From: a virus
Taxonomy: Duplodnaviria > Caudoviricetes
Length of the DNA stretch: 60,961 nt
IMG/VR virus record: IMGVR_UViG_3300032323_001252
Coordinates: 1 to 60,961 of that record
Strand: one strand, 5' to 3'
In this document: piece by piece, positions 23,311 through 58,868 of the stretch
Layout: the number at the start of each line of letters is the position of its first letter
How positions within the stretch are numbered: the stretch's first letter is position 1
Translations under genes and position numbers: made by a program
Notes under the pieces: model-generated
What the model was told of the DNA's origin: nothing
What the model saw: the letters and a program-made list of their open reading frames with translations, nothing else
The model's database searches: none

Positions 23311-23373
23311 CATGGAAGATTATGAACACGCAGCAAGATTTGTTAAATTGAAAATTTATACTTATCTTTAAGT

Positions 23374-23979
23374 ATGAAAACTTACATCTATATCCTCATA
23401 GATCCAGAAACTAACCAGGTTAGGTATATTGGAAAGACCAAAAGTCTAAAAAGACGTTACAATCAACACATTAGTGAGTGTTCTAAACTCAAAAGCCATA
23501 AGAACAATTGGCTATTGTTATTAAAGAACAAGAATCTTAGACCAGAGATGGTTGTAATTGATGAAACTGATAAAGATGATTGGGTATTTTTAGAACAATG
23601 GTATATAGAATTATATAAATCTTGGGGATATAAATTAACAAATCTTACAAAAGGAGGTGAAGGAGCATATGGTTATTGCCCAACACCTGAAACTTTAGTA
23701 AAAATGTCATTAGTTCAAAAAGGTAAAATTGTTTCAGAAGAAACTAGAAAAAAACTTTCATCAGCTTTCAAAGGTAGAATATTTTCTGAAGAGACTAAAA
23801 AGAAACTTTCAGAAGCTGCTAAAAAAAGAGGAATTTCAACAGAAATAAGAGAAAAAATGATAAATTCTAAAAAGAAAAATCCTTTAAAGCATAGTGAAGA
23901 TTCAAAATTACGTATATCAGAAAAATTAAAAATTATAGCAAATGAAAGAAAGTATAAAAATAATAGATCCCCCAACTGA
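23374..23979 (+). mobile_element. Free-standing GIY-YIG homing endonuclease with NUMOD3 repeats
   Basis: YIYIL...RYIGKT...R...H; NLTKGGEG; SEETRKKLS repeats; own TTTG...TATCTTTA promoter-like site. Confidence 0.85.
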
Positions 23980-24205
23980 TTTTATCAGCAGCACAGATTG
24001 GGAGTATGCGGAGGCCAAAGATTTCGTATATTTGTTGGCTGATCAGATGCTAGATGAGCATCTACCAAGAATTGAAGTTATAGACCAGGATAAAGTATTT
24101 AAAGATGAAGATAGACATAACAGTAGAACAATTCGAAGACACCATAGCGAAAGGATACACGATGGATATGGTGTTTCTGCTCTTGATGATTCACGAACAG
24201 TATGA
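23942..24205 (+). CDS. Hypothetical protein
   Basis: 87 aa; both ends overlap neighbours. Confidence 0.55.
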   Translation: MKESIKIIDPPTDFISSTDWEYAEAKDFVYLLADQMLDEHLPRIEVIDQDKVFKDEDRHNSRTIRRHHSERIHDGYGVSALDDSRTV

Positions 24206-24728
24206 TGTTAGACTGATATCTGATGACAATCCTAAATTACAAATCTTGTGTCAGTCAATCCATAGAAAGGGATTGATAACATCAGAGTATAAGATAACAG
24301 AAACAGGAACCAAGCTGCTGGAGTATCTGAAAGCTAAAACCCGACAGAAGTTCGTGAAGCCTAAGATTTCAGCACAAGAGTTTGATGACTGGTGGGAAGC
24401 TTATCCTGGAACAGATTCCTTTGAATATCTTGGGAAGAAGTTTCAGGGAAGCCGCTCCCTTCGTTCTGGTAAAGAGGATTGTAGAATTAAGTTTAATGTA
24501 ATTCTATCAGAGAAAGAATACACAGCACAAGAATTGATTGATGCAATGAAGCATGACGTTCTATTGAAGAAAGAGGCATCTGTTAAAGAGAATAAGAATA
24601 AACTATCGTTTATGCAGAACTCTTTGACATATCTTAATCAAAGAAGTTATGAACCATTCATTGAATTGATTAGAGCAGGAGAAGTAGTTAAACAATCAGT
24701 TAAACCTGTAGGAGGAACAGACATATGA
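24105..24728 (+). CDS. Replication initiator/helicase-loader-like protein
   Basis: FDDWWEAYP...TYLNQR.YE motifs, directly upstream of DnaB. Confidence 0.6.
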   Translation: MKIDITVEQFEDTIAKGYTMDMVFLLLMIHEQYDVRLISDDNPKLQILCQSIHRKGLITSEYKITETGTKLLEYLKAKTRQKFVKPKISAQEFDDWWEAYPGTDSFEYLGKKFQGSRSLRSGKEDCRIKFNVILSEKEYTAQELIDAMKHDVLLKKEASVKENKNKLSFMQNSLTYLNQRSYEPFIELIRAGEVVKQSVKPVGGTDI

Positions 24729-25792
24729 GTTTTCAAGATTTAAAATTAGCTGTACAAGATGGCTTGAGTGGTAAGAACGGTGGTATACCCATGGGATTTG
24801 ATAGACTGAATAGATACATTGGTATTCGTAAGTCTATGTATACGCTTGTAGGTGGTCTAACAGGTTCTGGTAAAACTTCATTCATCGATGATGCATATGT
24901 ACTAAATCCATTTGATTGGTCTATTAGCCCAGAGGGACAAACGTCTGGGATTAATCTAAAGATCATCTATAGATCAATGGAGCGTAGTAGAACCTACAAG
25001 TATGCCAAGTGGATTAGTAGAAAGATCTTTCTAGATCAAGGTATTATTATTCCTGTAGGCAAGATGTTAGGTTGGACTGATAAGATGACTCATGATGAAC
25101 ATGATCTTTTCTTACAGTATGAGGAGTATGGTGAAATGATGAAAGAGAAAATCACTATCATCGATGGGCCAGAGAATCCTGTAGGTATAGCAAAGGAACT
25201 TAGAGATTATGCTATGGAACGTGGTGAAGTTATTGAAGTGGATAAGTGGAATAAGAAATATATTCCTAATGATCCTAATGAAATAACTCTTGTAGTTATT
25301 GATCACATTGGTTTGTTAAAAATCACTAAAGATCACCCTACAAAGAAAGCTTCTATAGATAAGATGTCTGATGAGCTGCGTTACGCCAGGGACTTCTATG
25401 GTTATTCACCAGTTGTAGTGTCTCAGTTCAATCGTGACATTGCTAACCCTATGCGTATTAAGAATGGTGATGTAGAACCTCAGCTAGAGGATTTTGCAGA
25501 CAGTTCAGCAACACAGAATGATGCTGATGTTGTGTTGGCACTATTTGATCCTATGCGTTACAAGGTTGAAGATCCTAGCGGATATCAACTAGATAAGCTA
25601 AAGGATGAATATGGTGCAAAGTATTATCGTTCCCTAAGATTAATTAAGAATAGTTATGGCGAGGATGATGTACGAATAGGATTAGGCTTTCTTGGTCAGA
25701 TTGGTATGTTTAAAGAACTACCAAGAAGAAAAGACATGACTGATTCTGATTATGAAGCAGTGGTTAATAAAACATATTTCTTACAACAATGA
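24725..25792 (+). CDS. Replicative DnaB-like helicase
   Basis: GGLTGSGKT, VVIDHIGL, VSQFNR, DFADSSATQNDADVV. Confidence 0.88.
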   Translation: MSFQDLKLAVQDGLSGKNGGIPMGFDRLNRYIGIRKSMYTLVGGLTGSGKTSFIDDAYVLNPFDWSISPEGQTSGINLKIIYRSMERSRTYKYAKWISRKIFLDQGIIIPVGKMLGWTDKMTHDEHDLFLQYEEYGEMMKEKITIIDGPENPVGIAKELRDYAMERGEVIEVDKWNKKYIPNDPNEITLVVIDHIGLLKITKDHPTKKASIDKMSDELRYARDFYGYSPVVVSQFNRDIANPMRIKNGDVEPQLEDFADSSATQNDADVVLALFDPMRYKVEDPSGYQLDKLKDEYGAKYYRSLRLIKNSYGEDDVRIGLGFLGQIGMFKELPRRKDMTDSDYEAVVNKTYFLQQ

Positions 25793-29929: not shown

Positions 29930-29931
29930 TT

Positions 29932-31738: not shown

Positions 31739-31763
31739 TTTGTTACCTTTTTATGTATATTTG
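31739..31763 (+). promoter_or_regulatory. Bacteroidota sigma70-like promoter
   Basis: TTTG upstream and TATATTTG (-7 consensus TAnnTTTG); spacer looks shorter than consensus. Confidence 0.5.
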
Positions 31764-31779
31764 TAACAAAAATATACAT

Positions 31780-32184
31780 ATGGCTAAGAGAGCGATAACT
31801 CCTAAGACTAGAAACTCTGGAACAATGACAGAATCAGCGTTCTGGAGTTTCATTAGGAGTGGATTAAGACAGAAGTCTAGATGGTGGAAGCCTATAACAG
31901 AATGTAAAGCTAAGGCTAAGCGTCCTTACAAGGGTCCACTAAAGAGACAGAAGTTTGAATATCAGTGTAATCAATGTAAAGGTTGGTTTCCAGAGAAGAA
32001 AATAAATGTAGACCATATCGTGCCAGCAGGTACACTAACTTGTGCTCAAGATCTTCCAGGATTTGTAGAACGTTTGTTCTGTGAAGTGGATAATCTACAA
32101 GTGATGTGTGAACCCTGTCATGATATTAAAACCCAAAATGAAAATGGACGGAGAAAAAGAAATCGCAAGGCTGTCAATAAATAA
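31780..32184 (+). CDS. HNH nuclease
   Basis: CNQC...NVDHIVP...NLQVMCEPCHDIKT. Confidence 0.85.
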   Translation: MAKRAITPKTRNSGTMTESAFWSFIRSGLRQKSRWWKPITECKAKAKRPYKGPLKRQKFEYQCNQCKGWFPEKKINVDHIVPAGTLTCAQDLPGFVERLFCEVDNLQVMCEPCHDIKTQNENGRRKRNRKAVNK

Positions 32185-32404: not shown

Positions 32405-33425
32405 GAAAGAGTATAGAGCTGTCCAAATGGATAGCTCTTCTAGTCTAAAAGAATTTTCTGTAGACAGAAAGAAGTATCACAAGAAGTATATTCTTGAGGA
32501 GAAGGTTGAAGATGATGAGAACAAAGCTGCTGTAATGGGTAGAGTTGTAGAAACATTACTACTAGAGCCAGAATTGTTTGAGAGTAGATTTCACATGTCT
32601 ACTTGTGAAGGTGCACCAACAGGATTGATGAATGATTTTGTGGAGGCGTTATACAAGAGAACACTAGAAGCTACAGATGTATTTGGTAAAGTTGCCAGAA
32701 CATTTGAAGACATCTCTAAAGATGCTTATGTAGATTCAGGATTCAAGATTAAGTATGAGGCTGTAATGAACAAGTTCGCTGGTTCTGAAGCAGAGACATA
32801 TTATGATGAAATTCGTGTTGTCAGAGCTAAAGGATTAACTGTAGTGACAGCTAATGACATGAACAATGCAGAACGTATTGTAGCTGAGCTTAGAAACAAC
32901 TTTGTCACTAGAGATATAGTTAATCTAGTTAAGAGTTCTCGCTATGATGTCTACAATCAATATCAAGTGGAAGGGTTTGATGTACTAGGTTTGCAGTGCA
33001 AAGGTATGATGGATAAGATCATTGTAGATCACGAAGCAAAAACTTTACAAATATATGATCTAAAATGTACTTGGTCTGTTGAAAATTTCTACGAAGAATA
33101 TTATCTTTATAGAAGAGCTTACATTCAGGCATATGTGTATTGGCAAGCAGGATTACAAATCTTAGAAGATCTTGGAATACCAGAATATCGTCTAGAATAT
33201 CCAAGTTTTATAGTTTGTGATTCTACAAATTACATGAATCCACTTATCTATACACTAGACTTAGAAGATCTTGAAGATGCAGCTGTAGGATTCTCACATA
33301 AAGGAAGAAACTATCCAGGTGTAAAGCAGATTATATCAGATTTGAAGTGGGCTAAAGAAACAGACACTTGGAATATTTCCAAAAGTCGTTATGAATCAGG
33401 TGGAGTTGTAAACATTAGACAATAG
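32388..33425 (+). CDS. PD-(D/E)XK exonuclease (RecE/Cas4-like)
   Basis: SSSSLK, KGMMDKI, IYDLKCT, YIQAYVY. Confidence 0.8.
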   Translation: MITRTEKEYRAVQMDSSSSLKEFSVDRKKYHKKYILEEKVEDDENKAAVMGRVVETLLLEPELFESRFHMSTCEGAPTGLMNDFVEALYKRTLEATDVFGKVARTFEDISKDAYVDSGFKIKYEAVMNKFAGSEAETYYDEIRVVRAKGLTVVTANDMNNAERIVAELRNNFVTRDIVNLVKSSRYDVYNQYQVEGFDVLGLQCKGMMDKIIVDHEAKTLQIYDLKCTWSVENFYEEYYLYRRAYIQAYVYWQAGLQILEDLGIPEYRLEYPSFIVCDSTNYMNPLIYTLDLEDLEDAAVGFSHKGRNYPGVKQIISDLKWAKETDTWNISKSRYESGGVVNIRQ

Positions 33426-33432
33426 TAACAAA

Positions 33433-33993
33433 ATGGAGATTAAGAAGACGATAACAAGTATTTTTATGGTTCCTACATTGAAGATTGATAGGGGAAACTT
33501 GCGAGATAATGGTTTTCTAAACGCATACATTGCAGATAAAAGAAAAGATGTACAGCACAAAGATGCTGTATATCTTCTCTTTAAACCTGAAGATCTAGAT
33601 AAGTTCAGAGAGTTCTTAGATAAAGAATACGAAAGAACCAAAAATGTAATGGATGATTATGATTACGAAGATGGTTATGTTGTAGTAGTGTACAAACTTA
33701 ATCCTAAATGGAAGAAAGACTTCCTGTTAGTCAGAGAAGGTTTGTATTCTCGAACAAGTGAAGAATTTCAAAAGTTATTTCCACAAGTTATCAAAGCAGA
33801 TACAAAACGCGGAATACTCAGAGATCAATTATCATTGCAATTTAGAGTTTTCACAAGATCCCCCGAACTAATTGATTATTGGGAAAAGAAACTAGATGTT
33901 GTCTTTACAGATGACATGGAGGTTTGGGATGGTTTCACTATCCAAAATGAAATATTAGATTTAGAAAAACTTAAAACAGAAGAATTAGTATGA
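33433..33993 (+). CDS. Hypothetical protein
   Basis: 186 aa ORF in replication operon. Confidence 0.75.
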   Translation: MEIKKTITSIFMVPTLKIDRGNLRDNGFLNAYIADKRKDVQHKDAVYLLFKPEDLDKFREFLDKEYERTKNVMDDYDYEDGYVVVVYKLNPKWKKDFLLVREGLYSRTSEEFQKLFPQVIKADTKRGILRDQLSLQFRVFTRSPELIDYWEKKLDVVFTDDMEVWDGFTIQNEILDLEKLKTEELV

Positions 33994-34370
33994 TAGAGAT
34001 ATTAAAAGAACATCCAAAAGCAGCTGAAGTAATGAAAGAGTATTATATCGATCTAATGATTGAATCAGCACAAGATTTACCAGCTCACTTTAGAGAATTT
34101 CTACAAGATAAAGGACTAGAGATGTCTAACATTGCAGACATGATGGAGGCAGCTCCTAGAAATCTATTCGATGTATTTGATAAATATGAAATTATTATCA
34201 GTATTACATACGATAGACATGCTAATAAGTTCTGCTATTTTGTAAATGAATATCAAGATAAAACACATTTTAATACACGTAAAGAAGCTGATAAAGATGC
34301 TGTAGCAACAGCTCTAACTTTACTAGAAGCTAAACTAAATGCGTTAGAAAAAGATAACGAAGAAAGTTAA
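33990..34370 (+). CDS. Hypothetical protein
   Basis: 126 aa, RKEA...A...AL.LLE. Confidence 0.7.
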   Translation: MIEILKEHPKAAEVMKEYYIDLMIESAQDLPAHFREFLQDKGLEMSNIADMMEAAPRNLFDVFDKYEIIISITYDRHANKFCYFVNEYQDKTHFNTRKEADKDAVATALTLLEAKLNALEKDNEES

Positions 34371-34456
34371 TAACAATTTTAAAATTTACTTGTTAATTGA
34401 GAAGGTCTGTGGTAATTTGCAGACCTTTTCTTTTAAAATTTAAACAACAAAAACAT

Positions 34457-35005
34457 ATGGATTTAGGCTTAGAAGCTCTATCAAAAATTACCTACAAGTT
34501 AGCTTGTCCAGTATGTGGAAAAGATAGGGAATTCAAGAGCAAATCTTTCTTTTACAAAGCTAGGAAACACAATAAACCTTGTATGTCTTGCTCTAATTCT
34601 ATAAAAGCTGGAGGAAAAGGGAATTTATATCATGGTGATTCTAAAACTTGTGCAATATGTGAGGTGATAAAACCATTGACTGAGTTCTTTAGTTACAAAG
34701 CTGGTAATCACCACTCATGTTGCAAAGACTGTTCTAAGTCAAAATCTCATAAGTATCACAAAAATACTTATAGGTTTGCTAAGTATGGTATAAGTAAAGA
34801 ACAGTTTGATGAAATGATGGTAAATCAAGATAATAACTGTGCAATATGTAAGAAGCAATTACATGATGAAATAGATATTGATCATGATCATACAACTGGA
34901 AAGGTCAGAGGTATTCTATGTGGAAAGTGTAATAAAGGATTAGGTCAATTTGATGACAATGTGGAGTTTTTGAAGAACGCAATAAATTATTTAAACAATG
35001 AGTAA
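34457..35005 (+). mobile_element. Endonuclease VII-type HNH homing endonuclease starting with an nrdJ-like N-terminus
   Basis: KYGIS..QF..M...Q...CAIC...IDHDH.TGKVRGILC.KCN.GLG.F.D; starts MDLGLEALSKIT. Confidence 0.85.
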
Positions 35006-35342
35006 TATAGAAGACTTAATCAAGACACAATACATTAGTCTCGACTCAGCACAGTTAAGAGTGTTTGTAGATGATGTAGATAAATTTGAACCTGTATTCA
35101 ATCTGCATAAATATGACCATATAGAATATACTGGAGGTTCTGTTGAGGATATTATACCAGTATTTGTTCCTGACAAAGAAAAGAGAGCAAAGTATAATAT
35201 ACCAAGTTTTGTAGAGGATATAGCAATTTCAAGTGATAAAACATTTGGCCATTGTCTTATCATATCAGTAAACAGTTGGTATGATATTAATTTACTTCAT
35301 GATTGGATTAGTAACTATTTAAAACAAGATAATAATGAATAA
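34998..35342 (+). CDS. Hypothetical protein (possible cargo of HEG cassette)
   Basis: 114 aa, overlaps HEG stop and nrdJ start. Confidence 0.6.
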   Translation: MSNIEDLIKTQYISLDSAQLRVFVDDVDKFEPVFNLHKYDHIEYTGGSVEDIIPVFVPDKEKRAKYNIPSFVEDIAISSDKTFGHCLIISVNSWYDINLLHDWISNYLKQDNNE

Positions 35343-37203
35343 TACAAGTACAGATTTAGGACTCCAGGCATTAAGTTCTATCACGGTTTTTAGTAAGTAT
35401 GCCAAGTATATTCCTAGCAAGCAGCGTAGGGAAACTTGGGATGAAATTGTCAATCGTTATGAGGACATGATGATTGCAAAATACCCACTGATGTCACAAG
35501 CAATTGTGGAAACAGCAAAGATGATTCGTGAGAAAAAGATCTTACCATCTATGCGTGCTCTACAGTTTGCTGGGCCAGCAGCAGAGGTGAACAACGCCAG
35601 AATCTATAACTGTTGTTATCTTCCTATTGATAGCATTCATAGCTTCTCTGAGTCTATGTTTCTATTGTTAGGTGGTACAGGTGTAGGTTATTCTGTACAA
35701 ACACATCACGTTAGTCAACTGCCAGAGATCAAGCGTCCTACAAAGTCTCGCAACTATCTTATAGAAGATTCTATTATGGGATGGGCTGATGCAGTGAAGA
35801 TGTTAGTGAAAGCTTATTTAGCTGGAGGAACAATGCCTAAGTTTGACTTCCGTGCTATTCGTGAGAAAGGTGCAACATTGGTAACAGCAGGTGGTAAAGC
35901 ACCAGGTCCTGAGCCATTAAAGCTATGCCTAGCACACGTTCAAGCTATCCTTGATAGAAAGCATGATGGAGAGAAATTAACAAGCTTAGAGTGTCACGAT
36001 ATCATGTGTCACATTGCTAACTCTGTATTAGCTGGTGGTATCCGTAGAAGTGCTATGATTTGTTTGTTTGATCATGACGATGAGTCTATGATTACATCTA
36101 AGTATGGTAACTGGTGGGAAACTAATGAGCAACGTGGACGTGCTAATAACTCTGCTGTATTAAAGCGTGGAGAGATTAGTGAAGAACAATTCAAAGCTCT
36201 ATGGAAACGTGTAGAAGCTTCAGGATCAGGAGAACCAGGATTGTATTGGACTAACAACTTAGACTGGGGAACTAACCCATGTTGTGAGATTGCTTTACGT
36301 CCTTATCAGTTCTGTAACTTATGTGAAGTGAATGTATCTGATGTAACAGACCAAGAAGATCTAAATGCTCGTGTAGCAGCAGCTGCTTTCTTTGGTACTC
36401 TACAAGCAGGATTCTTTGACTTTCATTACTTACGTCCTATCTGGGCAAAAACTACACAGAAAGATGCTCTATTGGGTATTGGTATGACAGGTATTGGTTC
36501 AGGAGAAATCTTGAAATATGACTTAGCAGTTGCTGCTGAAGTAGCAAAAGCTGTAAACAGAATGATTTCTGAGAAGATTGGCACAAACGAGGCAGCTCGT
36601 GTAACTTGTATCAAACCATCAGGTACTACATCATTGGTATTAGGAACAGCTTCTGGTATTCACGCATGGCACAATGATTTCTATTTACGTACAATGCGTT
36701 TCAACAAGAACGAAGATATTGCTGTGTATCTAATGAACAATCATCCTGAACTATGTGAAGATGATGTATTACGTCCTAATGATACAGTTTGTGTACGTAT
36801 TCCAGTTAAAGCACCAGAAGGTTCTATCTTACGTACAGAAACACCTATAGATACGCTTGAGCGTGTTAAGCTATTCTCTACAGATTGGATTAGAACAGGA
36901 CACGTTAATGGTGATAACACTCACAACGTATCAGCTACTATTTCTATTAGAGATGACGAATGGGAATCTGTAGGAGATTGGATGTGGGAAAATCGTAACA
37001 CTTATAATGGTCTATCTGTATTGAACTACTGGGGTGGTTCATATCAGCAAGCACCGTTTGAAGACATTACAGAAGAAGAATATAATAAACGAATTGTTAC
37101 ACTTAAAGAACTAGATTTAACCAATGTCAAAGAAGCAAACGACAATGTTGAATTCGGACAAGTTGCAGCTTGTAGTGGGGGTGCATGCGAAACTAATATC
37201 TAA
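35335..37203 (+). CDS. nrdJ: Class II (adenosylcobalamin-dependent) ribonucleotide reductase
   Basis: YNCC, GGTGVG, GGIRRSA, TNPCCEI, FCNL, TCIKPSGT, C-terminal ACSGGAC; no NrdB nearby. Confidence 0.92.
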   Translation: MNNTSTDLGLQALSSITVFSKYAKYIPSKQRRETWDEIVNRYEDMMIAKYPLMSQAIVETAKMIREKKILPSMRALQFAGPAAEVNNARIYNCCYLPIDSIHSFSESMFLLLGGTGVGYSVQTHHVSQLPEIKRPTKSRNYLIEDSIMGWADAVKMLVKAYLAGGTMPKFDFRAIREKGATLVTAGGKAPGPEPLKLCLAHVQAILDRKHDGEKLTSLECHDIMCHIANSVLAGGIRRSAMICLFDHDDESMITSKYGNWWETNEQRGRANNSAVLKRGEISEEQFKALWKRVEASGSGEPGLYWTNNLDWGTNPCCEIALRPYQFCNLCEVNVSDVTDQEDLNARVAAAAFFGTLQAGFFDFHYLRPIWAKTTQKDALLGIGMTGIGSGEILKYDLAVAAEVAKAVNRMISEKIGTNEAARVTCIKPSGTTSLVLGTASGIHAWHNDFYLRTMRFNKNEDIAVYLMNNHPELCEDDVLRPNDTVCVRIPVKAPEGSILRTETPIDTLERVKLFSTDWIRTGHVNGDNTHNVSATISIRDDEWESVGDWMWENRNTYNGLSVLNYWGGSYQQAPFEDITEEEYNKRIVTLKELDLTNVKEANDNVEFGQVAACSGGACETNI

Positions 37204-37207
37204 ATAA

Positions 37208-37239
37208 TTTGGTAATCTGACATTTTATACATATCTTTG
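37208..37239 (+). promoter_or_regulatory. Bacteroidota sigma70-like promoter upstream of the HNH gene
   Basis: TTTG-(~20 nt)-TATCTTTG. Confidence 0.65.
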
Positions 37240-37256
37240 GATAAATAAAATGTCTT

Positions 37257-37808: not shown

Positions 37809-37846
37809 AGGTGCAGGCGGAGCATGTGCCACTGAATAAAGTAGTG

Positions 37847-37960
37847 ATGTCACGCGAGTTTCTCTCTAGTAGAGGAACTTGCTGTGGCAACATGTGTAGA
37901 GAATGTCCATACAATCCGAGACACACTGCGGGGACAACTCAAAAATATTTTTTTCCATAG
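37847..37960 (+). CDS. Small Cys-rich protein, DUF5522-like (not in ORF track)
   Basis: MSREFLSSRGTCCGNMCRECPYNPRHTAGTTQKYFFP; RGxCCGxxCRxCPY signature; alternative GTG start at 37826. Confidence 0.7.
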   Translation: MSREFLSSRGTCCGNMCRECPYNPRHTAGTTQKYFFP

Positions 37961-37991
37961 TGAATTAAATTAAAGTGAAAAAATTAGTACA

Positions 37992-38024
37992 AATAGCCTA
38001 GGTGTTTTACGTCTAGGCTATTTT
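37992..38024 (+). terminator. Intrinsic terminator
   Basis: AATAGCCTAGG...TCTAGGCTATTTT. Confidence 0.75.
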
Positions 38025-47161: not shown

Positions 47162-47317
47162 TTATTTAGATTTACGGGCTCTGCCCATTGCTTTGAATGT
47201 CTTAGCTAATGCTTTTCTCTTAGGAGTACATGTTGCTTTAGTCATAGGAGTACAATATCCTTTATGTTTAGGATTGACTGCCTTCTGAATCCAGTTCTTT
47301 TTTGATGCTGTTGCCAT
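47162..47317 (-). CDS. Small basic protein (not in ORF track)
   Basis: MATASKKNWIQKAVNPKHKGYCTPMTKATCTPKRKALAKTFKAMGRARKSK. Confidence 0.7.
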   Translation of the reverse strand: MATASKKNWIQKAVNPKHKGYCTPMTKATCTPKRKALAKTFKAMGRARKSK

Positions 47318-47344
47318 ACCTGTGATAGGTTAAATTGGGTTTTA

Positions 47345-47977
47345 CTATAATATCTTTATAGGTGTATTATTCTTTCTACTACCAGAAAGTTTCTCATGTA
47401 ACTTTTTATAACTTGTGTTTTTCTCACAGTCTGTAATAGACTCATATATAATATTAGTTTGAGTATCTATTACTCTCTTACTTATAGGAGTAGATTTACC
47501 AAACCAAGCATTCTTACAACCTGTAGAAGTCAATCTTAGTTTTTCTCTAGTTTGTTCAGAAGGCGATTTACCTTTCTTAGAATCACTCATTTTTCTTATT
47601 GTTTCTTCTGAGTGTTTCTTTCCAAACATGTGAGCTTTTTCTCCCTTCTGTCTTTCAGATAACTTTAGTATATACTCTTGCGATCTTTTTATACCAGGAG
47701 TACCTTCCCCACCGTTAGTCATATTAACTAAGCTTCCTGTACCTAGATCTTTTCTTCCATATAGCAAAATGAATTCCATCTCCTTTTCACAAGCCTCTTC
47801 CCAAGTTAAGTCATCTAATAAAATTTCTACCCTATAAGGTATTTTATTAGTAATATTCTTCCAATAAATACTTCTGTTAGCTTTTATATTAGATCTTTTA
47901 TAAGTTTCATCATTACCAATTCCTATATAGAATGGTTCGTTCTTATCTAATCTAATATGTCTGTATAGGTAAGCCAC
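47345..47977 (-). mobile_element. GIY-YIG-like homing endonuclease with NUMOD3
   Basis: YLYRHIRLD..EPFYIGIG; LVNMTNGGEG; GKKHSEET.RKMS. Confidence 0.85.
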
Positions 47978-48178
47978 TTATTTCTCAATATGTCTACCAA
48001 ACGTAATGTTTGGTTTAACTTTTATTTGACGATGAGTAAATTGCCAGAGCTCCCCAGTGGCATTGATGATAATCGTATAGAGGGTATCGGTCTCATGACC
48101 ATAATCTAAAACCAACCAAACGATTCCATCACCTTTTGGTGTAGTGACTTCTAATCGATTGGCTGGTTCGTAGATCAT
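47978..48178 (-). CDS. Small hypothetical protein
   Basis: V.TPKGDG....V.DYG.E...L......TGE.W.F. Confidence 0.7.
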   Translation of the reverse strand: MIYEPANRLEVTTPKGDGIVWLVLDYGHETDTLYTIIINATGELWQFTHRQIKVKPNITFGRHIEK

Positions 48179-49201: not shown

Positions 49202-49855
49202 TTAAATTATTGTTGATGCATTACCTACTAAGTTACAATTAGTAATTGTTACTGCAGTACCACCTAAATTACAATTAGTAATTTCTGTAACATTGCCTCC
49301 TAAATTACAAGCACTGATTGACGTTGCAATGCCTGCTAACGCACAAGGAGAAATAGTGGTAGTAGTAGTTGTAGTAGGTGCTATTGTTGTGGTAGTACTA
49401 GTCGTAGGTAATCCAGTTGTAGTTGTCGTTGTTGTTGATGCTACCACCATTGTAGTGGTCGTAGTGGTTGATCCTACTATTGTAGTAGTTGTAGTTGTTG
49501 TACTACTACTACTAGTGGTTGTAGTGGTACTGATAGGAATAGTGGTTGTAGTAGTAGTTGTAGGAACATACGGCCTGTATGTTGCATTAATCTCTAACCA
49601 ATACGTACCAGAATCAGCATCTGATGGAGCACCTGATAGTAATAACAAACTACTAGGAACAACTCTACCGTATGCATCAAGTCTAACAAAAGCTCTTAAT
49701 GAATTAGAGGTGAGTACACTATTGCCGATAGCTTTGCTTACGGGTTGCCAATTGCCAACCTTTGGTCTATAAGGACTAATGATAGGACCCCCAGGAACAA
49801 TACGTCCCTGAGAGTTATATCTTACATAAGCTATATTACCGTTTCTTCCTAGCAT
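49202..49855 (-). CDS. Thr-rich mucin-like putative virion decoration protein
   Basis: Two A[FY]VR..GR[IV]V modules, ~70-residue poly-Thr tract, four C[AN]L.G repeats. Confidence 0.7.
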   Translation of the reverse strand: MLGRNGNIAYVRYNSQGRIVPGGPIISPYRPKVGNWQPVSKAIGNSVLTSNSLRAFVRLDAYGRVVPSSLLLLSGAPSDADSGTYWLEINATYRPYVPTTTTTTTIPISTTTTTSSSSTTTTTTTIVGSTTTTTTMVVASTTTTTTTGLPTTSTTTTIAPTTTTTTTISPCALAGIATSISACNLGGNVTEITNCNLGGTAVTITNCNLVGNASTII

Positions 49856-49857
49856 TA

Positions 49858-50076
49858 TTATGCCACTGTTGTGGTAGTAGTTGTAGTAGAAGGAGCAATT
49901 GTTGTAGTTGATGTCGTAGTAGTATTAGCATTAGTTCCTCTATAATATGTAGGAATTTCTCTCCATGTACCTGATTTAGGTTTCGAGGCTCTGAAGACAG
50001 GTGTTCCTGATACTACACGACCTGTAGAATCAATTTGAACAAATGCTTTTAATTTTGGGGTTGCGTTATTTGCCAT
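49858..50076 (-). CDS. Short anchor-module protein with poly-Thr tail
   Basis: LKAFVQIDSTGRVV...W.EIPTY then TTTTSTTTIAPSTTTTTTTVA. Confidence 0.75.
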   Translation of the reverse strand: MANNATPKLKAFVQIDSTGRVVSGTPVFRASKPKSGTWREIPTYYRGTNANTTTTSTTTIAPSTTTTTTTVA

Positions 50077-50078
50077 GA

Positions 50079-50510
50079 TTAATCTGGGTAAACTGTGAAT
50101 GCTAATTCTCCATTAGGACATAATAAATCTTTAACAGATGATGGTACACTTAATTGAATATTACCATCTCCTGCATTTGAATATGTTCCAAATTGACGAG
50201 TGTATTCAGATGTATTAAGTGCATCTACAAGTTCGTCTACAGTTGTAAGTGATGTATCATCATGTACATACTGATAAGCTACATTTGCCTCACCACAATA
50301 GATTGTAACAGCAGGATAACTTTGAGGTAATGATTCTCCTACATTAAATAATAATAGAGTAGGAACATTATTACAACATTCATATGTAGGAATTTCAAAC
50401 CAACGACCAACTCGTGGTTTATTCTTTCTCAGAATAAGGCTGCTTGCGACAACCCTTCCGCTACCATCGTAGCGAACAAATGCTTTTAATTTCTTCTGAT
50501 TATTAGCCAT
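50079..50510 (-). CDS. Anchor-module protein with globular passenger domain
   Basis: LKAFVRYDGSGRVV...W.EIPTY; C-domain similar to 52156-52563. Confidence 0.75.
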   Translation of the reverse strand: MANNQKKLKAFVRYDGSGRVVASSLILRKNKPRVGRWFEIPTYECCNNVPTLLLFNVGESLPQSYPAVTIYCGEANVAYQYVHDDTSLTTVDELVDALNTSEYTRQFGTYSNAGDGNIQLSVPSSVKDLLCPNGELAFTVYPD

Positions 50511-50515: not shown

Positions 50516-51538
50516 TTAATAAGTTAAATTGTATTTTTCTTTAAGTTCAAGAAGTCTACTTACATAATAATGTGTACCAAGCAATTTGCTCTTCTCATTG
50601 TTATATACGTATTCTAAATGCGAGTCAGTGAAAGGATCTATACCATTGTGGTATTTACCTTTATAGAATGTAGGGATGTCACCCATAGTGTCTCCTACCA
50701 TTCCAGCATTATGAAAGATCCCAAGTCTGTGTACTTTTTCTATCTGATCAGAAGCCCAAGCAAATTCCATTTCTGGAACAACTTTAGTTTCATCACCTCT
50801 ACGCCATAGATTCCATAGAACAGCCCACATATCTGCACACCAACTTTGAAAACCTCTATCCTCACTTTCAAAGAACTCTCTATTAACTTCCATTAAGAAC
50901 AAGCGAATAGAAATACAATCACTCATTACATGTTCCCAGAACTCTGCATCAATGTTCTTTAATAGATATTGAGCCCCTCCTGAATGTAAATTGTAATGCT
51001 CTGCAATTTCTCTATTAACATTACAAATAGCTGTAGTTTCTTGTAGAATATCACGTTCTTTGTATGCTTCTAGCTTGTGTGGTAGAACATCTCTATCCTT
51101 ACTATCAAAGTAACTAGCATTGATATAGCTGTTAGTATCTGATAAGTAATGTACATCATCGTTTATGTACTGATCAATGTTGAACTTGTCTGTAAATACT
51201 ACATCACAATCACAATACAGTAATGTTTTTTCTTTCATCTCAGGATGATCCTGGAAGTAACGCATCAATGTGTACGGACGTAGCACAGAAATATAGATTC
51301 CTAATAACGAGCTAACTCTGTTCTCATCATCCTTATAGAAAGCAAACTCTGCTTCTGGATATAAGTCAACAAGTTTTTGCCATTTGTCATTAGGCTCTCT
51401 GAAGTTTGGACAAAACACTAATATAATTGCTTTGTCTGAATGTCCAAGCTTTCTCAAGCTCTCTAGCCATAAATGCACTTGCCATGTAAAATATACATCG
51501 TCAGGTTGGGCACACACGAATTTTAGTTCTTTGTTCAT
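50516..51538 (-). CDS. GT-A fold glycosyltransferase, resembling peptide O-glycosyltransferases (HPAT/SERGT1-like)
   Basis: RPY....F, YCDCDVVF (DxD), GGAQY.L, WCADMWA, FHNAG. Confidence 0.65.
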   Translation of the reverse strand: MNKELKFVCAQPDDVYFTWQVHLWLESLRKLGHSDKAIILVFCPNFREPNDKWQKLVDLYPEAEFAFYKDDENRVSSLLGIYISVLRPYTLMRYFQDHPEMKEKTLLYCDCDVVFTDKFNIDQYINDDVHYLSDTNSYINASYFDSKDRDVLPHKLEAYKERDILQETTAICNVNREIAEHYNLHSGGAQYLLKNIDAEFWEHVMSDCISIRLFLMEVNREFFESEDRGFQSWCADMWAVLWNLWRRGDETKVVPEMEFAWASDQIEKVHRLGIFHNAGMVGDTMGDIPTFYKGKYHNGIDPFTDSHLEYVYNNEKSKLLGTHYYVSRLLELKEKYNLTY

Positions 51539-52128
51539 ATAGTAGTTGGTTTAAGTCTATCATCTCTTTTAATAATTGGTGTTGTATTAGATTTCCAAGA
51601 TATGCCATAAATAATTTGTCTAGCTGAAGCTAAACTTATATTCATGATTTTAGAAACTTCTATAATACTTTTACCAGAGTTGTATAGTTGTTTTAGTAAA
51701 GTTACATCTTTATCTGTAATTTTTGCTTTACTATTCTTTTCACCAGCTCTACTAGGTTGTAATCCTAATTCGTAAGCATGTTTTTGATTCTCAGAATTAT
51801 TCATCCATTCTAAGTTATCTGAAACATTGTTAAACTTGTTACCATCTTTGTGATTAACTTGTGGTAAACTGTTTGGATTATCTATAAAAGCTTTAGCAAC
51901 TAATCTGTGAACTACTCTTGGTAAAGAAGATGATTGTGTAAAAAGTCTTACTTCTAAATAACCTCTTCTATTAATGTAAGGTTTAAGTATTTTACTTTTA
52001 ACAATGCCTCTTCTTTTACCAGCAATTCTATCAATGCTTCTGACAGAGCCAAGACTACTTACTTCATACGAAGTTTCATATCCTGGACAAGGTCTCCACA
52101 TCTCACAGATAAATTTAAGATCCCTCAT
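51535..52128 (-). mobile_element. NUMOD4-HNH homing endonuclease
   Basis: W....GYE..YEVS.LG.VRS; VHRLVA.AFI.NP..LPQVNHKDGNK.NN...NLEW...SEN..HA. Confidence 0.9.
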
Positions 52129-52155: not shown

Positions 52156-52563
52156 CTAGTCGTTAAATACATTAATTGCTAATGTTCCATCAGGACAATA
52201 TATGTTTTTAATTATTGTTTGCGTGGTAGTTAATTGTAATGTTGTACTATCAAAAGCAGAGAATGTTCCGTATACAGCTATTGATAGAGTAGAATTAAAT
52301 AAACTAACTAGCTCATTTATATCATTTACAGTTTGACTTGTATATAGATTGTTACCAACAGGGGTATCATCACAAGTGAAATTCATACTAGTGTAATTTA
52401 TAGGAAACGATAGTGATTGACTATATACAGTTATTGTTTGTGGAGATGGAGTGGGTAATGTAACATTACCTGCTACTTTAGTCAGGTTCTCTAACTGCTT
52501 AGAAATATTCCAAAGCAATTTAGCTCTTTGACTCCATCCTATTTGTTGACTTGGTATTGCCAT
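52156..52563 (-). CDS. MAIPS-QIGW anchor protein with passenger domain
   Basis: MAIPSQQIGW...LLWNISKQLE.LT.V shared with 53811-54182. Confidence 0.75.
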   Translation of the reverse strand: MAIPSQQIGWSQRAKLLWNISKQLENLTKVAGNVTLPTPSPQTITVYSQSLSFPINYTSMNFTCDDTPVGNNLYTSQTVNDINELVSLFNSTLSIAVYGTFSAFDSTTLQLTTTQTIIKNIYCPDGTLAINVFND

Positions 52564-52575
52564 TGTTTTATATTT

Positions 52576-53799
52576 TTAAACGTTACCCATTTGTAATGAT
52601 CCTTCTGTTCCTGCAAATGGATTAAGTGCAGAGTAAGTTGCTCCAGTATTTGTAGCGTTATGTCCGTTACCACTGTTATCAGTTAATTGTGCACTTAAGT
52701 TTGTTCCTTGGAAGATCAATAGTCTAGTAGCAGCTAAATCAGTAAGAGGAGATATTGGAACTGTAAATCCAGTTGGATCATAAACATAAGAGTTAGTCCA
52801 TCTAAAGTTACTAATCAATCCATTAAATCCTGAGTTAGGCTCATTACCATATCCAATTGTTACTGGTAAGTTCTGACTAAAGATAGCTCCATCATATGGA
52901 CCACTTGCTACTTGAACACCATCAATTAAAATATAAAGTGAGCCCCCAACTCCTGTTACACATAAGTGATACCATTGTCCTAGTGTAGGATTAAATGAAC
53001 CACTTAGTAAATTTGTATTATCTCCCCAGAAATATAGCGAACCTCCTTCAATTGAAATAGCATTAGCAGCTGGATAAACACCAAGGCTATATGGACGTGG
53101 GAAGTTACTATTGTTGTTCATGTTTACAAACATCTCAATAGTAAAGTCTCCTACAATATCAAAGTCTGAACTAGCAGCAATACCTACATAACCTGGAGGA
53201 GCTTGATTTACAGTAATATTCCATCCTCTATCTTGTAAGATTGCTCTAGCTGCAGCACTATTTTCTGTAGGAATAGCATTTGTACCACCAGCTAAATTTA
53301 CAGTTCCATTCTCTACACTACTGCCAGCTAACCATTGTAATGTATAATCTACAGCTGTTGCTGTAAGAGCATTATTATTAAGGTTAACATTGTTAAGAGA
53401 TGCTTCAGGTAATGTGATTGATGTAATATCATTACCAGAAAGATCAAAACCTGTAAGATTATTAAATGACGAGCCTGATATATCTATAGTTCCTGATATA
53501 CTACATTGATCCATATCGATCCATTGTAAAGCATTAAGTCCTGAAATGTCAGGAATACCAGCTGAGAAATTACTATCATCAAGACGTAGTTCTTGAAGAG
53601 CTGTACATCCTGATAAGTTAATACCAGTTAATGATGGATTACCACTACCATCAAGTAATTCGGTATCGCTTACATCTACGTTTACTAATTGTGTAAGTCC
53701 AGATAGATTCACTGTAGTTAATGAGTTCCAATCTGCATGAAAGGTTTGCAGATTGGTTAAGTTTTGTAAACTTGTTATTGATGTTATTACTGTTGCCAT
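52576..53799 (-). CDS. Leucine-rich repeat plus LamG/ConA-like domain protein
   Basis: LxxLxxL repeats (LSGLTQL, LSGCTALQELRLDDS); GDFTIEM, GQWYH, F.G.ISNFR. Confidence 0.8.
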   Translation of the reverse strand: MATVITSITSLQNLTNLQTFHADWNSLTTVNLSGLTQLVNVDVSDTELLDGSGNPSLTGINLSGCTALQELRLDDSNFSAGIPDISGLNALQWIDMDQCSISGTIDISGSSFNNLTGFDLSGNDITSITLPEASLNNVNLNNNALTATAVDYTLQWLAGSSVENGTVNLAGGTNAIPTENSAAARAILQDRGWNITVNQAPPGYVGIAASSDFDIVGDFTIEMFVNMNNNSNFPRPYSLGVYPAANAISIEGGSLYFWGDNTNLLSGSFNPTLGQWYHLCVTGVGGSLYILIDGVQVASGPYDGAIFSQNLPVTIGYGNEPNSGFNGLISNFRWTNSYVYDPTGFTVPISPLTDLAATRLLIFQGTNLSAQLTDNSGNGHNATNTGATYSALNPFAGTEGSLQMGNV

Positions 53800-53810
53800 G
53801 TTTGTTAAGA

Positions 53811-54182
53811 TTAATCAGTACCCCAGAAAGATATGTATGTTACTTTTGTTGCATCACTAAAACATAGTTGAACAGTGTGTGCAGTGTTTTCAGCAGTGTA
53901 TAGATGTTCTATATCTACAGTAGCACCAGTAGCAATAGTACCATTACTTGTAGTACCATCACCCCATGTAGCAGTGTATGTTATATCTGCTGATGATTCA
54001 GCAGTCATTCCAAAACCAAGTCCTCCTAATGTAGTATCAGCTACAAAGCTAATGCAGTTTGGATCAGCCTGTGGTTGACCAATATTATATACAACTCTGG
54101 TCAAATACTCTAACTGCTTAGAGATTTGCCACAACAGATTTTCTTCTGTTCCCCAACCTATTTGTCTAGATGGTATAGCCAT
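53811..54182 (-). CDS. MAIPS-QIGW anchor protein with PKD-like domain
   Basis: Shared N-terminus; TWGDGT...H.Y PKD signature. Confidence 0.75.
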   Translation of the reverse strand: MAIPSRQIGWGTEENLLWQISKQLEYLTRVVYNIGQPQADPNCISFVADTTLGGLGFGMTAESSADITYTATWGDGTTSNGTIATGATVDIEHLYTAENTAHTVQLCFSDATKVTYISFWGTD

Positions 54183-54194: not shown

Positions 54195-55529
54195 TTAATA
54201 TATTTTATTCAATACGAACGTGTCGCTGTATATATTGTTTCCTGTACTAGCAGATCCCCATTGAATTGTTACATCTAATGTATTACCGATTGTTGTATTG
54301 AATGTTGTGTTATTCACTACATTAAATCCAAATCCTTGAACAGAAGCGTTGTTAGTCTTTGTGTAATGAAATGATCCTAATGACACAATAGATGCTACAC
54401 CAGCAGTTCCAAGTTGTCTAATTGTAAAATCAACATTCAAAGACCATACATCATTTGTAACAGCACTTCCAAGATTTTGAATACCGCTATCTAAAAGAAT
54501 AACAGATCCTGTTTTTAATTTAATTCTAATAGTTTGATTATTATTAGCATTCATAAGACCTCCTAGAATTGCTCTAAAAGAATCACCAACAGCAAATCCA
54601 TTAGCAGGTACACTCAATGTACCAACTCCTGCACCAATGATAGTTGTTTCTGCAGTGGTGTTAGTAACAGTAGCACTATTAGCTGTTTGAGCATATAAAC
54701 CAGGTGTGCCTGCTGGTCCTTGTGCACCTGTATCTCCTTTAGGACCAACTTCTCCCTGAATACCTTGTATACCCTGAATACCCTGAATTCCTTGAATACC
54801 CTGAGCACCAGTGTTACCTGTATCACCTTTAGGTCCTTGTGGACCTGGATCTCCTTGTGGTCCTTTTATATCACCAGCATCAAACCATGCTGTTCCATTC
54901 CAAGTCATTAAAGAACCATCAGATAATAAAATCCAAGAATCTCCTATGTTAGCACCAGGTTGAGAACCTGCACCAGCTTCAAACGCAGCTAAATCAGCAT
55001 AAGATCCAAGAAGAGTTACAGAATTACCTGCACTTCCTTGAGCTCCTGTCTCACCTTGTATACCTTGAGGACCTATATCTCCTTGATCACCTTTAACCCC
55101 TTGGATACCTTGAATACCTTGTTCTCCTTGAACACCTTGTATTCCCTGGATTCCTTGTACTCCTTGAGGTCCTTGTAGATCGCCTACATCTTCCCAAGCA
55201 TTAGTTACTGTATTCCAAACATATAAAGAACCATCAGACTCAATTATCCATGCTGTACCAGGCTCACCAGGATCTCCACCAGCACCTGCTTGAAATGCAG
55301 CTAAGTCAGGATAAGATCCTAACACTGTTAAAGCAGCACCTGTTTCTCCTTGAGGACCTTGTATACCCTGTACTCCTTGGATTCCTTGTGGACCTTGTAC
55401 ACCCTGTGGGCCTGGAGGACCTACTAATCCTTCACTTTGAATTAGTTCATCTAGGTTTAACCAACCCTTATACCCATTACAATCTCTGCAAGATTTTTCC
55501 CAGAAGCCTGTCTTTATAAACGTAGGCAT
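54195..55529 (-). CDS. Collagen-like fibre protein
   Basis: Three Gly-X-Y tracts separated by two copies of LGSY.DLAAF.AGAG...DGSL..WN...W.D.GD. Confidence 0.85.
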   Translation of the reverse strand: MPTFIKTGFWEKSCRDCNGYKGWLNLDELIQSEGLVGPPGPQGVQGPQGIQGVQGIQGPQGETGAALTVLGSYPDLAAFQAGAGGDPGEPGTAWIIESDGSLYVWNTVTNAWEDVGDLQGPQGVQGIQGIQGVQGEQGIQGIQGVKGDQGDIGPQGIQGETGAQGSAGNSVTLLGSYADLAAFEAGAGSQPGANIGDSWILLSDGSLMTWNGTAWFDAGDIKGPQGDPGPQGPKGDTGNTGAQGIQGIQGIQGIQGIQGEVGPKGDTGAQGPAGTPGLYAQTANSATVTNTTAETTIIGAGVGTLSVPANGFAVGDSFRAILGGLMNANNNQTIRIKLKTGSVILLDSGIQNLGSAVTNDVWSLNVDFTIRQLGTAGVASIVSLGSFHYTKTNNASVQGFGFNVVNNTTFNTTIGNTLDVTIQWGSASTGNNIYSDTFVLNKIY

Positions 55530-57606: not shown

Positions 57607-57912
57607 TTACCACTGTGGCTCGTCTTTCAAAGCCTCTTTTTCTGTTTTCTTAGCAGGTGCAGCTGGCTTAGCAGCTTCCTTCTCCTTGATGATAACAGTT
57701 TTGCCACCAGCAGATTGTTGTTGCTGTTGTGCATTTGAGTTAGTGATGTTGATCACTGGAGCAGGTGCTGTAACTGCTGCTGGTGTAGCTGCTGCTTCTT
57801 CTTCACCTGTTAATTGTTTAGTCACAAAACCACCTACACCTAGTGCGATAGTACTTGCTAGTCCGATAAGGATGCTCTTTAATGAGCCTCCACCTTCTTG
57901 TTCTTCTGCCAT
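57607..57912 (-). CDS. Small membrane-anchored low-complexity protein
   Basis: N-terminal TM, PVINIT, Q-run. Confidence 0.7.
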   Translation of the reverse strand: MAEEQEGGGSLKSILIGLASTIALGVGGFVTKQLTGEEEAAATPAAVTAPAPVINITNSNAQQQQQSAGGKTVIIKEKEAAKPAAPAKKTEKEALKDEPQW

Positions 57913-57913
57913 A

Positions 57914-58267
57914 TTAATTAAGGATTAAGGGTTTTTTAATAATAGTTCCTGAGATATCGATAAGATGTAAATCATACATACCTGTAGGTAATTCGTTTAA
58001 GTTAATAGTTTTAATTGTAGCTTCTGATTCAGCTGTAAATCCAACTGTCTTAACAGGTTCTGTTTTTCCAAATGTATACACTTGAAGTGAATACTTAGCT
58101 CCTGCTGTAGTGTTAGCTACTATTGTAGTAGATTTGTTAGATACAGTAATAGATGTAATGTCTGTGCCCTTTGCTGTAGCACCAAGATCAATTTCTCTCT
58201 CCAAGACTTCAATGTCTTGACAAGAAACTAATATCATTAAAAATATAAATACGATTGCGTGTCTCAT
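57914..58267 (-). CDS. Lipoprotein with Ig/T9SS-CTD-like domain
   Basis: MRHAIVFIFLMILVS/C lipobox; LNELPTGMYDLHL.D..G..IKKPLI. Confidence 0.65.
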   Translation of the reverse strand: MRHAIVFIFLMILVSCQDIEVLEREIDLGATAKGTDITSITVSNKSTTIVANTTAGAKYSLQVYTFGKTEPVKTVGFTAESEATIKTINLNELPTGMYDLHLIDISGTIIKKPLILN

Positions 58268-58268
58268 G

Positions 58269-58868
58269 TTAGAAGTTGTTAAGTTTTTTATTTGCAAGTA
58301 AAGATTTCATATAGGTACTGTGGTTTTGTTTCCATTCCTCTGTTTTTCTATAATTTGCTTTAGGTCTTGGTTTACGCATTATTTCTATCCACTCTGCTGT
58401 CTTTTCTCTAGGAACCCTATCAGGATTACTTTTGCAACATTTCTGATGTATACTTAAGTTACCTTTTCCACCTAATTCTTTATTACAATATTCACAATTA
58501 AACTTAGGAGGCACAAATCCTTTATTTGCCTTAGACATATTATCAATCCAAGTCTGAGATCTTTTTGCCCCTTTTCGTAACAAGCTAAGTTTTTGCTTAA
58601 CTTCTTCAGTGTGATTTTTTAATCCACCACCACCTTCGTTTTTATTTAATACATTGTATCCCCAATGTCTAAACTGTTCTATCCAATATGATTCTAACGG
58701 TTTCCAATCTTTTTTATCTTCTGACTCTATTTCATCTATATAGTCAAAATTAATTTGAGATCCGAACTTTAATTTATGACCAGATTTTCTAGTTTTAATT
58801 GATGTCTTACCTACATAAACTGTATAAGGGTTATCATCAATGTTAGTAACTATATATATTTTTGCCAT
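58269..58868 (-). mobile_element. GIY-YIG-like homing endonuclease
   Basis: IYIVTN...YVGKT...R...H; LE.YWIEQF..WG...LNKN.GGGG; HTEE.K.KLS; CEYC..H..C. Confidence 0.8.

Follow-up and report, generated by a model that had tools for sequence, protein, structure and literature searches.

How can a free-standing homing endonuclease gene (HEG) occupy the conserved coding sequence of a phage gene without an intron or intein, and without costing the phage that gene? The question is raised by IMGVR_UViG_3300032323_001252, an IMG/VR viral record (Duplodnaviria; Caudoviricetes) that was analyzed in its entirety as a single window of 60,961 bp, by estimate about half a genome. The window has a GC content of 31-39% and carries replication and structural modules typical of phage. 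Between positions 23312 and 58868, six HEGs each lie between two copies of the first or last codons of a neighboring gene, one copy orphaned and one in use. Comparison with HEG-free relatives identifies the orphan as the ancestral gene end at all six loci, whereas the terminus in use is a diverged substitute.

Relatives of the window are plentiful in IMG/VR, several on contigs of 110-119 kb, while a distant-mode search of the GenBank phage collection with positions 33000-40500 returned no close relative (the best place amounts to 20% of the query). Individual relatives carry codes of the form L001, and the set for the ribonucleotide reductase (RNR) gene comprises 80 related loci at 59-93% identity. 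Nucleases were assigned by Pfam and PHROG searches, and the whole window was scanned with Rfam at gathering score. For every locus, the orphan copy (remnant), the substitute and the adjoining 90 nt of gene body were each scored against the ancestral allele of a HEG-free relative: L163 for A, L004 for C and D, L086 for F, L082 for G and for the H remnant, and L244 for the H junction. Metagenome runs X2, X4, X5 and X9, from other public samples, supplied further contigs, while RNA runs matched only 5-8% of the sampled words; only contigs that join across a stretch were counted as skipping it, and uncovered stretches (for example, HEG D in X2 and X9) were not scored as absence.

Six sporadic nuclease genes beside duplicated gene termini

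Eight nuclease-like genes (A to H) lie within 23312-58868, of which A, C, D, F, G and H are sporadic.

HEG A, 23374-23979, plus strand: GIY-YIG nuclease with NUMOD3 (PF01541, 1.3e-8; PF07460, 6.4e-6; phrog_314 homing endonuclease, 4.8e-23)
Gene B, 31753-32184: HNH gene
HEG C, 34457-35005, plus strand: endonuclease VII-type HNH nuclease (PF02945, 2.8e-24; phrog_2633, 5e-37)
HEG D, 37257-37808, plus strand: HNH-type nuclease by PHROG only (phrog_3322, 1.4e-20; phrog_374 HNH, 1.5e-18), with no Pfam match
Gene E, 39894-40304: HNH gene
HEG F, 47345-47977, minus strand: GIY-YIG-like nuclease with NUMOD3 (PF07460, 3.4e-18; phrog_314, 2.7e-22)
HEG G, 51535-52128, minus strand: NUMOD4 plus HNH_3 nuclease (PF07463, 1.2e-14; PF13392, 5.9e-6; phrog_59, 4.8e-46)
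HEG H, 58269-58868, minus strand: weak GIY-YIG-like nuclease (phrog_314, 6.4e-7), its GIY-YIG and NUMOD3 matches falling under the Pfam cut-offs

By these Pfam and PHROG assignments the six sporadic HEGs belong to at least three nuclease families, in agreement with the first-pass annotation of the window, which had reported six HEGs of several families. Genes B and E were tried as further cases and set aside: they are syntenic in nearly all relatives (E has a homologue in 26 of the 26 loci that hold both flanks, and B in most of 58), and the sample contains no HEG-free allele of either. Both are conserved core genes outside the six-HEG finding and more likely encode domesticated or core nucleases than mobile HEGs. 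An extra 0.7-1 kb between the E homologue and the next gene in four relatives (L003, L017, L029 and L095) possibly represents other insertions.

Each of the six HEGs lies between two copies of the neighbor's terminus, one orphaned and one working. The first-pass annotation had described this duplicated-terminus layout for five of six; the layout stands, but the count was either an undercount or included a conserved HNH gene. The insertion sites fall in conserved coding sequence right at the gene ends, with A, C and G at the extreme 5′ end of the host gene and D, F and H at the 3′ end. An uninvaded allele is available for every one of the six loci. In each, the ancestral gene end is the orphan piece, with 0-1 nt differences for C, D, F, G and H. 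The substitute termini, five of which could be scored, differ from the ancestral allele at 6/30 to 18/42 nt, while the adjoining gene body differs at only 0-14 of 90, so that divergence is confined to the duplicated stretch. The prediction that HEG-free relatives would correspond to remnant plus gene body is thereby upheld at six of six loci, with the in-use termini being the diverged ones, and at none of the six do HEG-free relatives match the current termini instead.

Occurrence at the individual loci is patchy: the HEG is found in 2 of 44 relatives for C, 10 of 80 for G, 8 of 80 for D (after RNR) and 2 of 35 for F, and in 0 of 2 and 0 of 15 for A and H, respectively. The same layout recurs in independent assemblies, namely in L006, L007, L083 and L095, at ten G loci, and in X2, X4 and X5 contigs. 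When the 93 genes of the window are ordered by how similar their two flanks are, F comes 3rd, C 5th, A 6th and G 12th, with D (45th) and H (58th) inseparable from chance and tandem paralogue families in the top ranks; the window sequence alone is therefore suggestive for four cases only. It is the comparison with relatives that makes all six decisive, with exact joints skipping C and D in independent contigs.

No Rfam family reaches gathering score anywhere in the window, and Pfam detects no Hint/intein domain in any HEG or host gene. The host open reading frames (ORFs) are complete, each with its own start or stop beside the cassette, and HEG and host ORFs are separated by stops and starts, consistent with the earlier observation that obvious intron and intein features are lacking. 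Stop and start codons overlap or are closely spaced at the host-HEG borders, an arrangement typical of coupled translation. The HEGs draw these signals from the host gene, whose start is used by C and G directly and by A through coupling, and whose end is entered by F and H. All six are thus HEG-family nucleases of sporadic presence that lie outside introns and inteins. As a structural statement, the first-pass claim of insertions in conserved gene termini that bring a diverged replacement end and require no splicing is supported at six of six loci.

Uninvaded alleles at the individual loci

The class II RNR gene hosts two of the HEGs, one at either end.

34412..34491, plus strand: C remnant, which runs in frame into HEG C and comprises the RNR leader in its ancestral form, the start codon and the first 11-12 codons
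34998..35342, plus strand: orf114, a cargo gene within the C cassette
35335..35385, plus strand: C substitute RNR start, with 6 new codons followed by an 11-codon diverged block (35353-35385)
35335..37203, plus strand: class II RNR (PF02867, PF21995), host of C at its 5′ end and of D at its 3′ end
37174..37203, plus strand: D substitute RNR 3′ terminus with its own stop
37811..37839, plus strand: D remnant, the ancestral RNR 3′ end including the stop
37847..37960, plus strand: small Cys-rich DUF5522 gene (PF17653, 7.5e-8), its leader preserved by the D remnant

The C remnant is identical to HEG-free L004 from the leader through 34491, apart from 1 of 33 nt in the scored block, and HEG C begins translation at the start codon that belonged to RNR, a fusion repeated in L006 and L007. 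The substitute start differs from L004 at 15/33 nt, 9/11 codons and 2/11 amino acids (aa), and the following 90 nt at only 4. Among the 44 relatives with a readable RNR 5′ end, 42 are HEG-free and carry the gene directly after the conserved leader; the remaining two, L006 and L007, have the C layout. The window shares with L006 and L007 33/33 nt of the block yet only 46/63 of the nucleotides that follow it. Against L004, the nearest HEG-free relative, the relationship is reversed (18/33, then 60/63). Identity between the window and L006 is ~55-75% in the flanking genes and the RNR body and rises to ~100% from ~34970 to ~35390, a tract that spans the 3′ part of HEG C, orf114 and the substitute block and drops directly after the block. 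The C substitute terminus is therefore carried by the element and travels with the HEG.

Contigs from X2 and X9 join 34491 to 35388, skipping exactly the 896 nt of HEG C and substitute and rebuilding remnant plus body. In X2 the form with HEG C is present as well, without a mismatch to the window across 935 nt; both alleles therefore coexist in one sample. The orf114 protein, which has no Pfam, PHROG or Atlas match, is 100% identical in L006 and L007. In X4 and X5 the HEG C contigs end at or diverge from the window after ~35000 and none covers 35028-35590, which indicates that orf114 is optional cargo.

At the other end of RNR, the D substitute differs from L004 at 9/30 nt over 37165-37194 and the preceding 90 nt at none. 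A 53-nt spacer separates the new RNR stop from HEG D, and the remnant beyond HEG D is identical to L004 (0/27 nt different). Contigs from X2 and X9 join 37171 to 37811, skipping exactly 639 nt and again rebuilding remnant plus body, and HEG D is present in X4 and X5. Other short joints within RNR (X9 and X4, with a side under 40) were disregarded as likely to derive from other organisms. Homologues of HEG D directly follow RNR in 8 of 80 relatives, and in L020 and L034 the D-type HEG runs in frame into the RNR remnant. The DUF5522 gene follows the RNR end in most relatives, overlapping it in some, and has a longer form of ~75 aa in L019 and L023; it may be connected with the Cys pair at the C-terminus of RNR. 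Distant HEG D homologues (28-36% identity) also occur elsewhere, in L005 (~9640-10176), L022 (~9714-10250) and L033 (~4005-4526), where they sit after RecA or before RNR; the HEG D family has apparently spread to several targets among these phages.

The remaining start-side cases are those of HEGs A and G.

23312..23371, plus strand: A remnant, the ancestral start of a small downstream gene, read as a 19-codon mini-ORF that ends 2 nt before the HEG A start
23942..24205, plus strand: 87-aa host gene of A, with a new, longer start overlapping the HEG A 3′ end and a substitute block at 23996-24025
50516..51538, minus strand: 340-aa conserved host gene of G (phrog_4417, function unknown)
51512..51538, minus strand: G substitute start, one codon longer, overlapping the HEG G stop
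52105..52128, minus strand: G remnant, formed by the ancestral start of the 340-aa gene and its next 7 codons, which continue in frame into HEG G

HEG A is absent from both relatives compared (L163 and L164). Over its first 8 codons the A remnant differs from L163 at 4/24 nt and 1/8 aa, and beyond them it shows decay with indels. The substitute block differs at 6/30 nt and the following 90 nt at 3. The G remnant is identical to L082 over all 24 nt, and its fusion to the HEG is repeated in all 9 HEG-bearing relatives listed; the substitute differs at 7/21 nt, and the adjoining body at 14/90. The site is HEG-free in 70 of 80 relatives, and the other 10 carry the HEG in the same layout. A longer, 14-residue form of the start is found in 10 of 10 HEG G-bearing relatives versus 12 of the 69 readable HEG-free ones. 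These 12 loci form one clade (L121, L122, L125, L127, L133, L136, L137, L139-L142 and L161) with an ordinary ancestral-type leader ahead of the 340-aa gene, and represent either the natural allele of the donor type or former HEG carriers in which the substitute has outlasted the HEG. When the tree is built from the gene body alone, leaving the terminus aside, the 11 HEG G rows among 81 need at least 8 gains or losses (shuffled mean 10.5), 7 of them forced by well-supported branches.

The two end-side cases outside RNR lie on the minus strand.

47316..47357, minus strand: F remnant, the ancestral 3′ terminus, which also forms the last codons and stop of HEG F (in another frame) and the start region of a 51-aa gene
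47978..48031, minus strand: F substitute 3′ terminus of a 66-aa gene, its stop overlapping the GTG start of HEG F
58269..58280, minus strand: H remnant, the ancestral last 3 codons and stop, now serving in frame as the HEG H 3′ end
58871..58885, minus strand: H substitute 3′ terminus of a 589-aa gene, 4 codons and a stop, too short to score

Only 1 of 42 nt separates the F remnant from L086, as against 18/42 nt and 7/14 aa for the substitute and 5/90 nt for the body preceding it. The two relatives with HEG F at this site, L083 and L095, have a near-identical substitute terminus. The H remnant ends 1 nt before the start of the downstream gene (58267) and matches L082 at all 12 nt. HEG-free L244, whose 589-aa protein is 86% identical, is the same as the window up to 3 codons before the stop of that gene, and matches it again from the ancestral 3 codons onward through the start region of the downstream gene. 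HEG H is absent from 15 of 15 relatives listed and from 11 of 11 in another comparison. The gene after HEG H (57914-58297) encodes a lipoprotein-like signal peptide and has a weak, sub-cut-off match to a type IX secretion C-terminal sorting domain, which hints at a Bacteroidota host.

Proposed mechanism and alternative explanations

We propose that the window holds six free-standing HEG cassettes, each inserted inside a gene end together with a substitute terminus and spreading by break repair, with the cassette-bearing allele protected, and we assign this reading a probability of roughly 0.78. Each cassette consists of a nuclease ORF and a diverged substitute copy of the displaced terminus, the latter with its own start or stop and placed beside the gene body, so that the host gene is kept complete without splicing and the displaced ancestral terminus is stranded on the far side as a remnant. 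The remnant is put to two uses. It provides expression signals for the HEG, in the form of a start and first codons (C and G), a coupled mini-ORF (A), or last codons and a stop (F, H and the relatives of D), and it keeps the leader of the next gene intact (D, F and H).

Homing would begin when the nuclease cuts a HEG-free allele at or near the ancestral junction. Ordinary double-strand-break repair would follow, for which remnant and gene body would provide the two homology arms, and everything between the arms would be copied in, including the substitute terminus and cargo such as orf114; conversion would run from the HEG-bearing allele onto the HEG-free one. The HEG-bearing allele would be protected by the splitting of its site and by the altered spelling of the rebuilt junction, which would render the substitute terminus immune to cleavage; its recoding may then have been selected rather than simply inherited as a foreign donor-lineage allele. 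Divergence between the two copies would also lower the recombination between them that would delete the HEG. The substitute blocks are ~15-54 nt long; this length and the conserved end sites fit the dimensions of homing sites.

Several observations weigh against this reading. Metagenome contigs cannot tell which allele converts which, and the cut could lie at a distance, as for the Seg and Mob enzymes described in the available portion of a T4 review (PMC2988022). The A remnant is decayed, just 2 of the 8 D-type HEGs inspected in relatives have a recognizable remnant, and the H duplication amounts to only 3-4 codons. HEG H relatives sought in viral contigs gave 10 pattern matches and 0 confirmed, so the mobility of H is argued solely from its absence from relatives. 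Between the window and L006, the protein encoded by HEG C shows just 65% identity, compared with 100% for orf114 and 83% for RNR, which indicates that the recent exchange tract covers only the 3′ part of the cassette. The longer G start, found in 12 of 69 HEG-free alleles, is not exclusive to HEG G alleles. The substitute blocks may also simply be donor-lineage alleles: HEG-free L029 encodes the same residues as the C substitute and shares 27/33 nt with it, so divergence need not be selected, and a foreign donor allele is, by this sequence comparison, at least as likely as stepwise recoding to be the origin of the C substitute.

The last point is the core of the most serious alternative, in which the HEG arrived from a diverged donor with the donor's gene end, the target lies elsewhere, and the substitute is a passive scar that gives no immunity. 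As has been suggested for Allomyces atp6, such a scar would arise if co-conversion took place toward the gene body while the opposite side was closed by an illegitimate join. It overlaps with our favored explanation on origin and differs only on present function. The C substitute falls within the natural range, with alleles 17-27/33 identical, and the F substitute differs at 7/14 residues, as expected of a foreign allele. In the available portions of the sources, comparable mitochondrial cases are attributed to horizontal acquisition of a foreign C-terminal region (PMC3630166), and T4 free-standing enzymes cut away from their own genes (PMC2988022). A passive origin does not readily account for a single geometry in six of six cassettes from at least three nuclease families with divergence exactly in the duplicated stretch, nor for an exchange tract whose limit coincides exactly, in two lineages, with that of the substitute block, and it leaves unexplained both the near-pristine remnants (0-1 differences in five cases) and the dependence of the HEGs on the remnant start or stop. 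We consider it improbable, though clearly ahead of the two explanations that follow.

HEGs are classically intron- or intein-borne, and one relative (L032) carries an HNH intein in the P-loop of RecA; the duplications might accordingly be exon or extein ends. The lack of any Rfam hit at gathering score in the window and of a Hint domain in HEGs or hosts speaks against this, as do the complete host ORFs and the remnants, which repeat sequence that the working gene already has instead of supplying a missing part; we regard such an origin as extremely improbable. Scarcely better is the chance that the HEG-bearing state is ancestral and the HEG-free alleles arose by deletion between the copies, or that the layout is an assembly artefact. 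Direct repeats can recombine, and the clade of 12 HEG-free loci with the long G start could be a loss product. However, remnant-type HEG-free alleles dominate (42/44 for C and 57/69 readable for G, in relatives of 59-93% identity), the ends seen are remnant-type, although a deletion across diverged repeats would in most cases produce hybrid or substitute-type ones, and the layout is repeated in independent assemblies.

A broader proposal is that terminus-swap homing is a general, convergent third way, alongside introns or inteins and intergenic sites, by which phage HEGs of unrelated families persist within conserved coding sequence; in it, the substitute is a selected immunity-and-rescue module comparable to a natural home-and-rescue drive, the N-terminal form captures the start, and the junction gives the target; we hold the odds on this proposal to be even.

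Relation to known systems and neighboring features

The closest known case is the gene hybrid formed by a mitochondrial mobile endonuclease ORF (mORF). In the available portion of PMC3630166, such hybrids are described from fungal mitochondria for Allomyces macrogynus atp6, Glomus atp6, atp9, cox2 and nad3, Rhizopus atp9 and Mortierella cox2, and they are interpreted as cases in which the ORF was transferred along with a foreign terminus. As at all six loci here, an endonuclease ORF lies inside a gene end beside a duplicated terminus, of which the inserted copy is diverged and the native copy matches close relatives; in the hybrids the divergence affects nucleotides more than protein, and the native copy lies downstream (PMC3630166). 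The mORF hybrids of that account are C-terminal only, often with the mORF in phase with the host gene, whereas D, F and H are C-terminal and A, C and G form an N-terminal mirror in which the HEG takes the start of the host gene and supplies a new one. The duplications in the window are also far shorter (3-18 codons) and are found in a phage genome, with several nuclease families in one. The mORF lineage is LAGLIDADG or GIY-YIG and mitochondrial, and the present elements are viral and include EndoVII and HNH enzymes, which makes this a likeness of design and not of membership.

The T4 Seg (GIY-YIG) and Mob (HNH) genes resemble the present HEGs in being free-standing, sporadic and expressed by overlap or coupling with neighbors, and their spread is inferred to proceed through break repair that co-converts the flanks (PMC2988022, available portion). 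They are intergenic, some overlapping the upstream ORF by 11-24 bp, whereas here the HEG sits inside a coding end with a substitute; neither "duplication" nor "duplicated" occurs in that review (PMC2988022). The literature covered, which includes the available portions of PMC10448857, PMC2988022, PMC12724721 and PMC8351571, contains no account of duplicated gene termini around phage HEGs, with subscription journals and supplements outside its scope, so that a published case may exist. New relative to the mitochondrial cases are the phage setting, the very short duplications, the N-terminal form that captures a start, and six cases with uninvaded alleles in a single 61-kb record.

Two further phage systems are said to solve the same problem by other means. 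In T4, mobA and the gene 60 insert reportedly form a mobile cassette that alters its target site in a coding region while the product is kept without RNA splicing, with rescue by translational bypassing of a 50-nt gap and not by a duplicated terminus. In Aeh1, mobE reportedly lies inside nrdA, itself a ribonucleotide reductase gene, as "genes in pieces" whose function is kept without splicing; the gene is said to be split into two polypeptides that reassemble, with no duplicated terminus. The logic of the cassettes equals that of engineered cleave-and-rescue and home-and-rescue gene drives, in which a nuclease directed against the wild-type allele is linked to a recoded, resistant rescue copy. 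Those drives are engineered, CRISPR-based and intended for diploid animals, again a likeness of design and not of descent.

The layout explains how free-standing HEGs could target coding sequence, the most conserved kind on offer, while the essential gene survives and neither intron nor intein is involved. A rule that needs sequence only follows from it: remnant plus gene body equals the uninvaded allele, which gives the elements, their exact boundaries and their likely target sites and makes nuclease specificity testable for uncultured phages. If terminus-swap homing proves general, the recognition sites of very many uncharacterized HEGs would be predictable from metagenomes. Warning signs for annotation are short orphan ORFs, odd N-terminal extensions, and HEG ORFs that start or end with a neighbor's residues. 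The window is unusually clean in this respect, offering six independent examples from at least three nuclease families, at both gene ends, with both alleles in one sample.

The RecA gene of L032 (L032:3746-5566) contains an in-frame P-loop insertion of ~275 codons that begins with Cys, includes an HNH motif and ends in His-Asn with Ser next, features that mark it as a classical HNH intein; RecA in the window (38075-39154) has no intein. Taken with the cassettes of the window, the L032 insertion shows that this phage group hosts both solutions.

Repeated genes occur at several other places in the window. Between 44758 and 47317 on the minus strand, eight small, very lysine-rich genes stand in a run, several with similar starts, and look like a tandem paralogue family; the two that were scanned have no significant Pfam match, and the family scores high in the flank-similarity control. 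Tandem paralogues with common N-termini and poly-threonine tracts are found among tail or fiber-like genes at 49202-50510 and 52156-54182 (both minus strand), next to a 444-aa protein (54195-55529) with collagen-like Gly-X-Y repeats. Adjacent paralogues of ~146 aa at 8600-9043 and 9386-9826 have similar upstream sequence and represent a tandem duplication.

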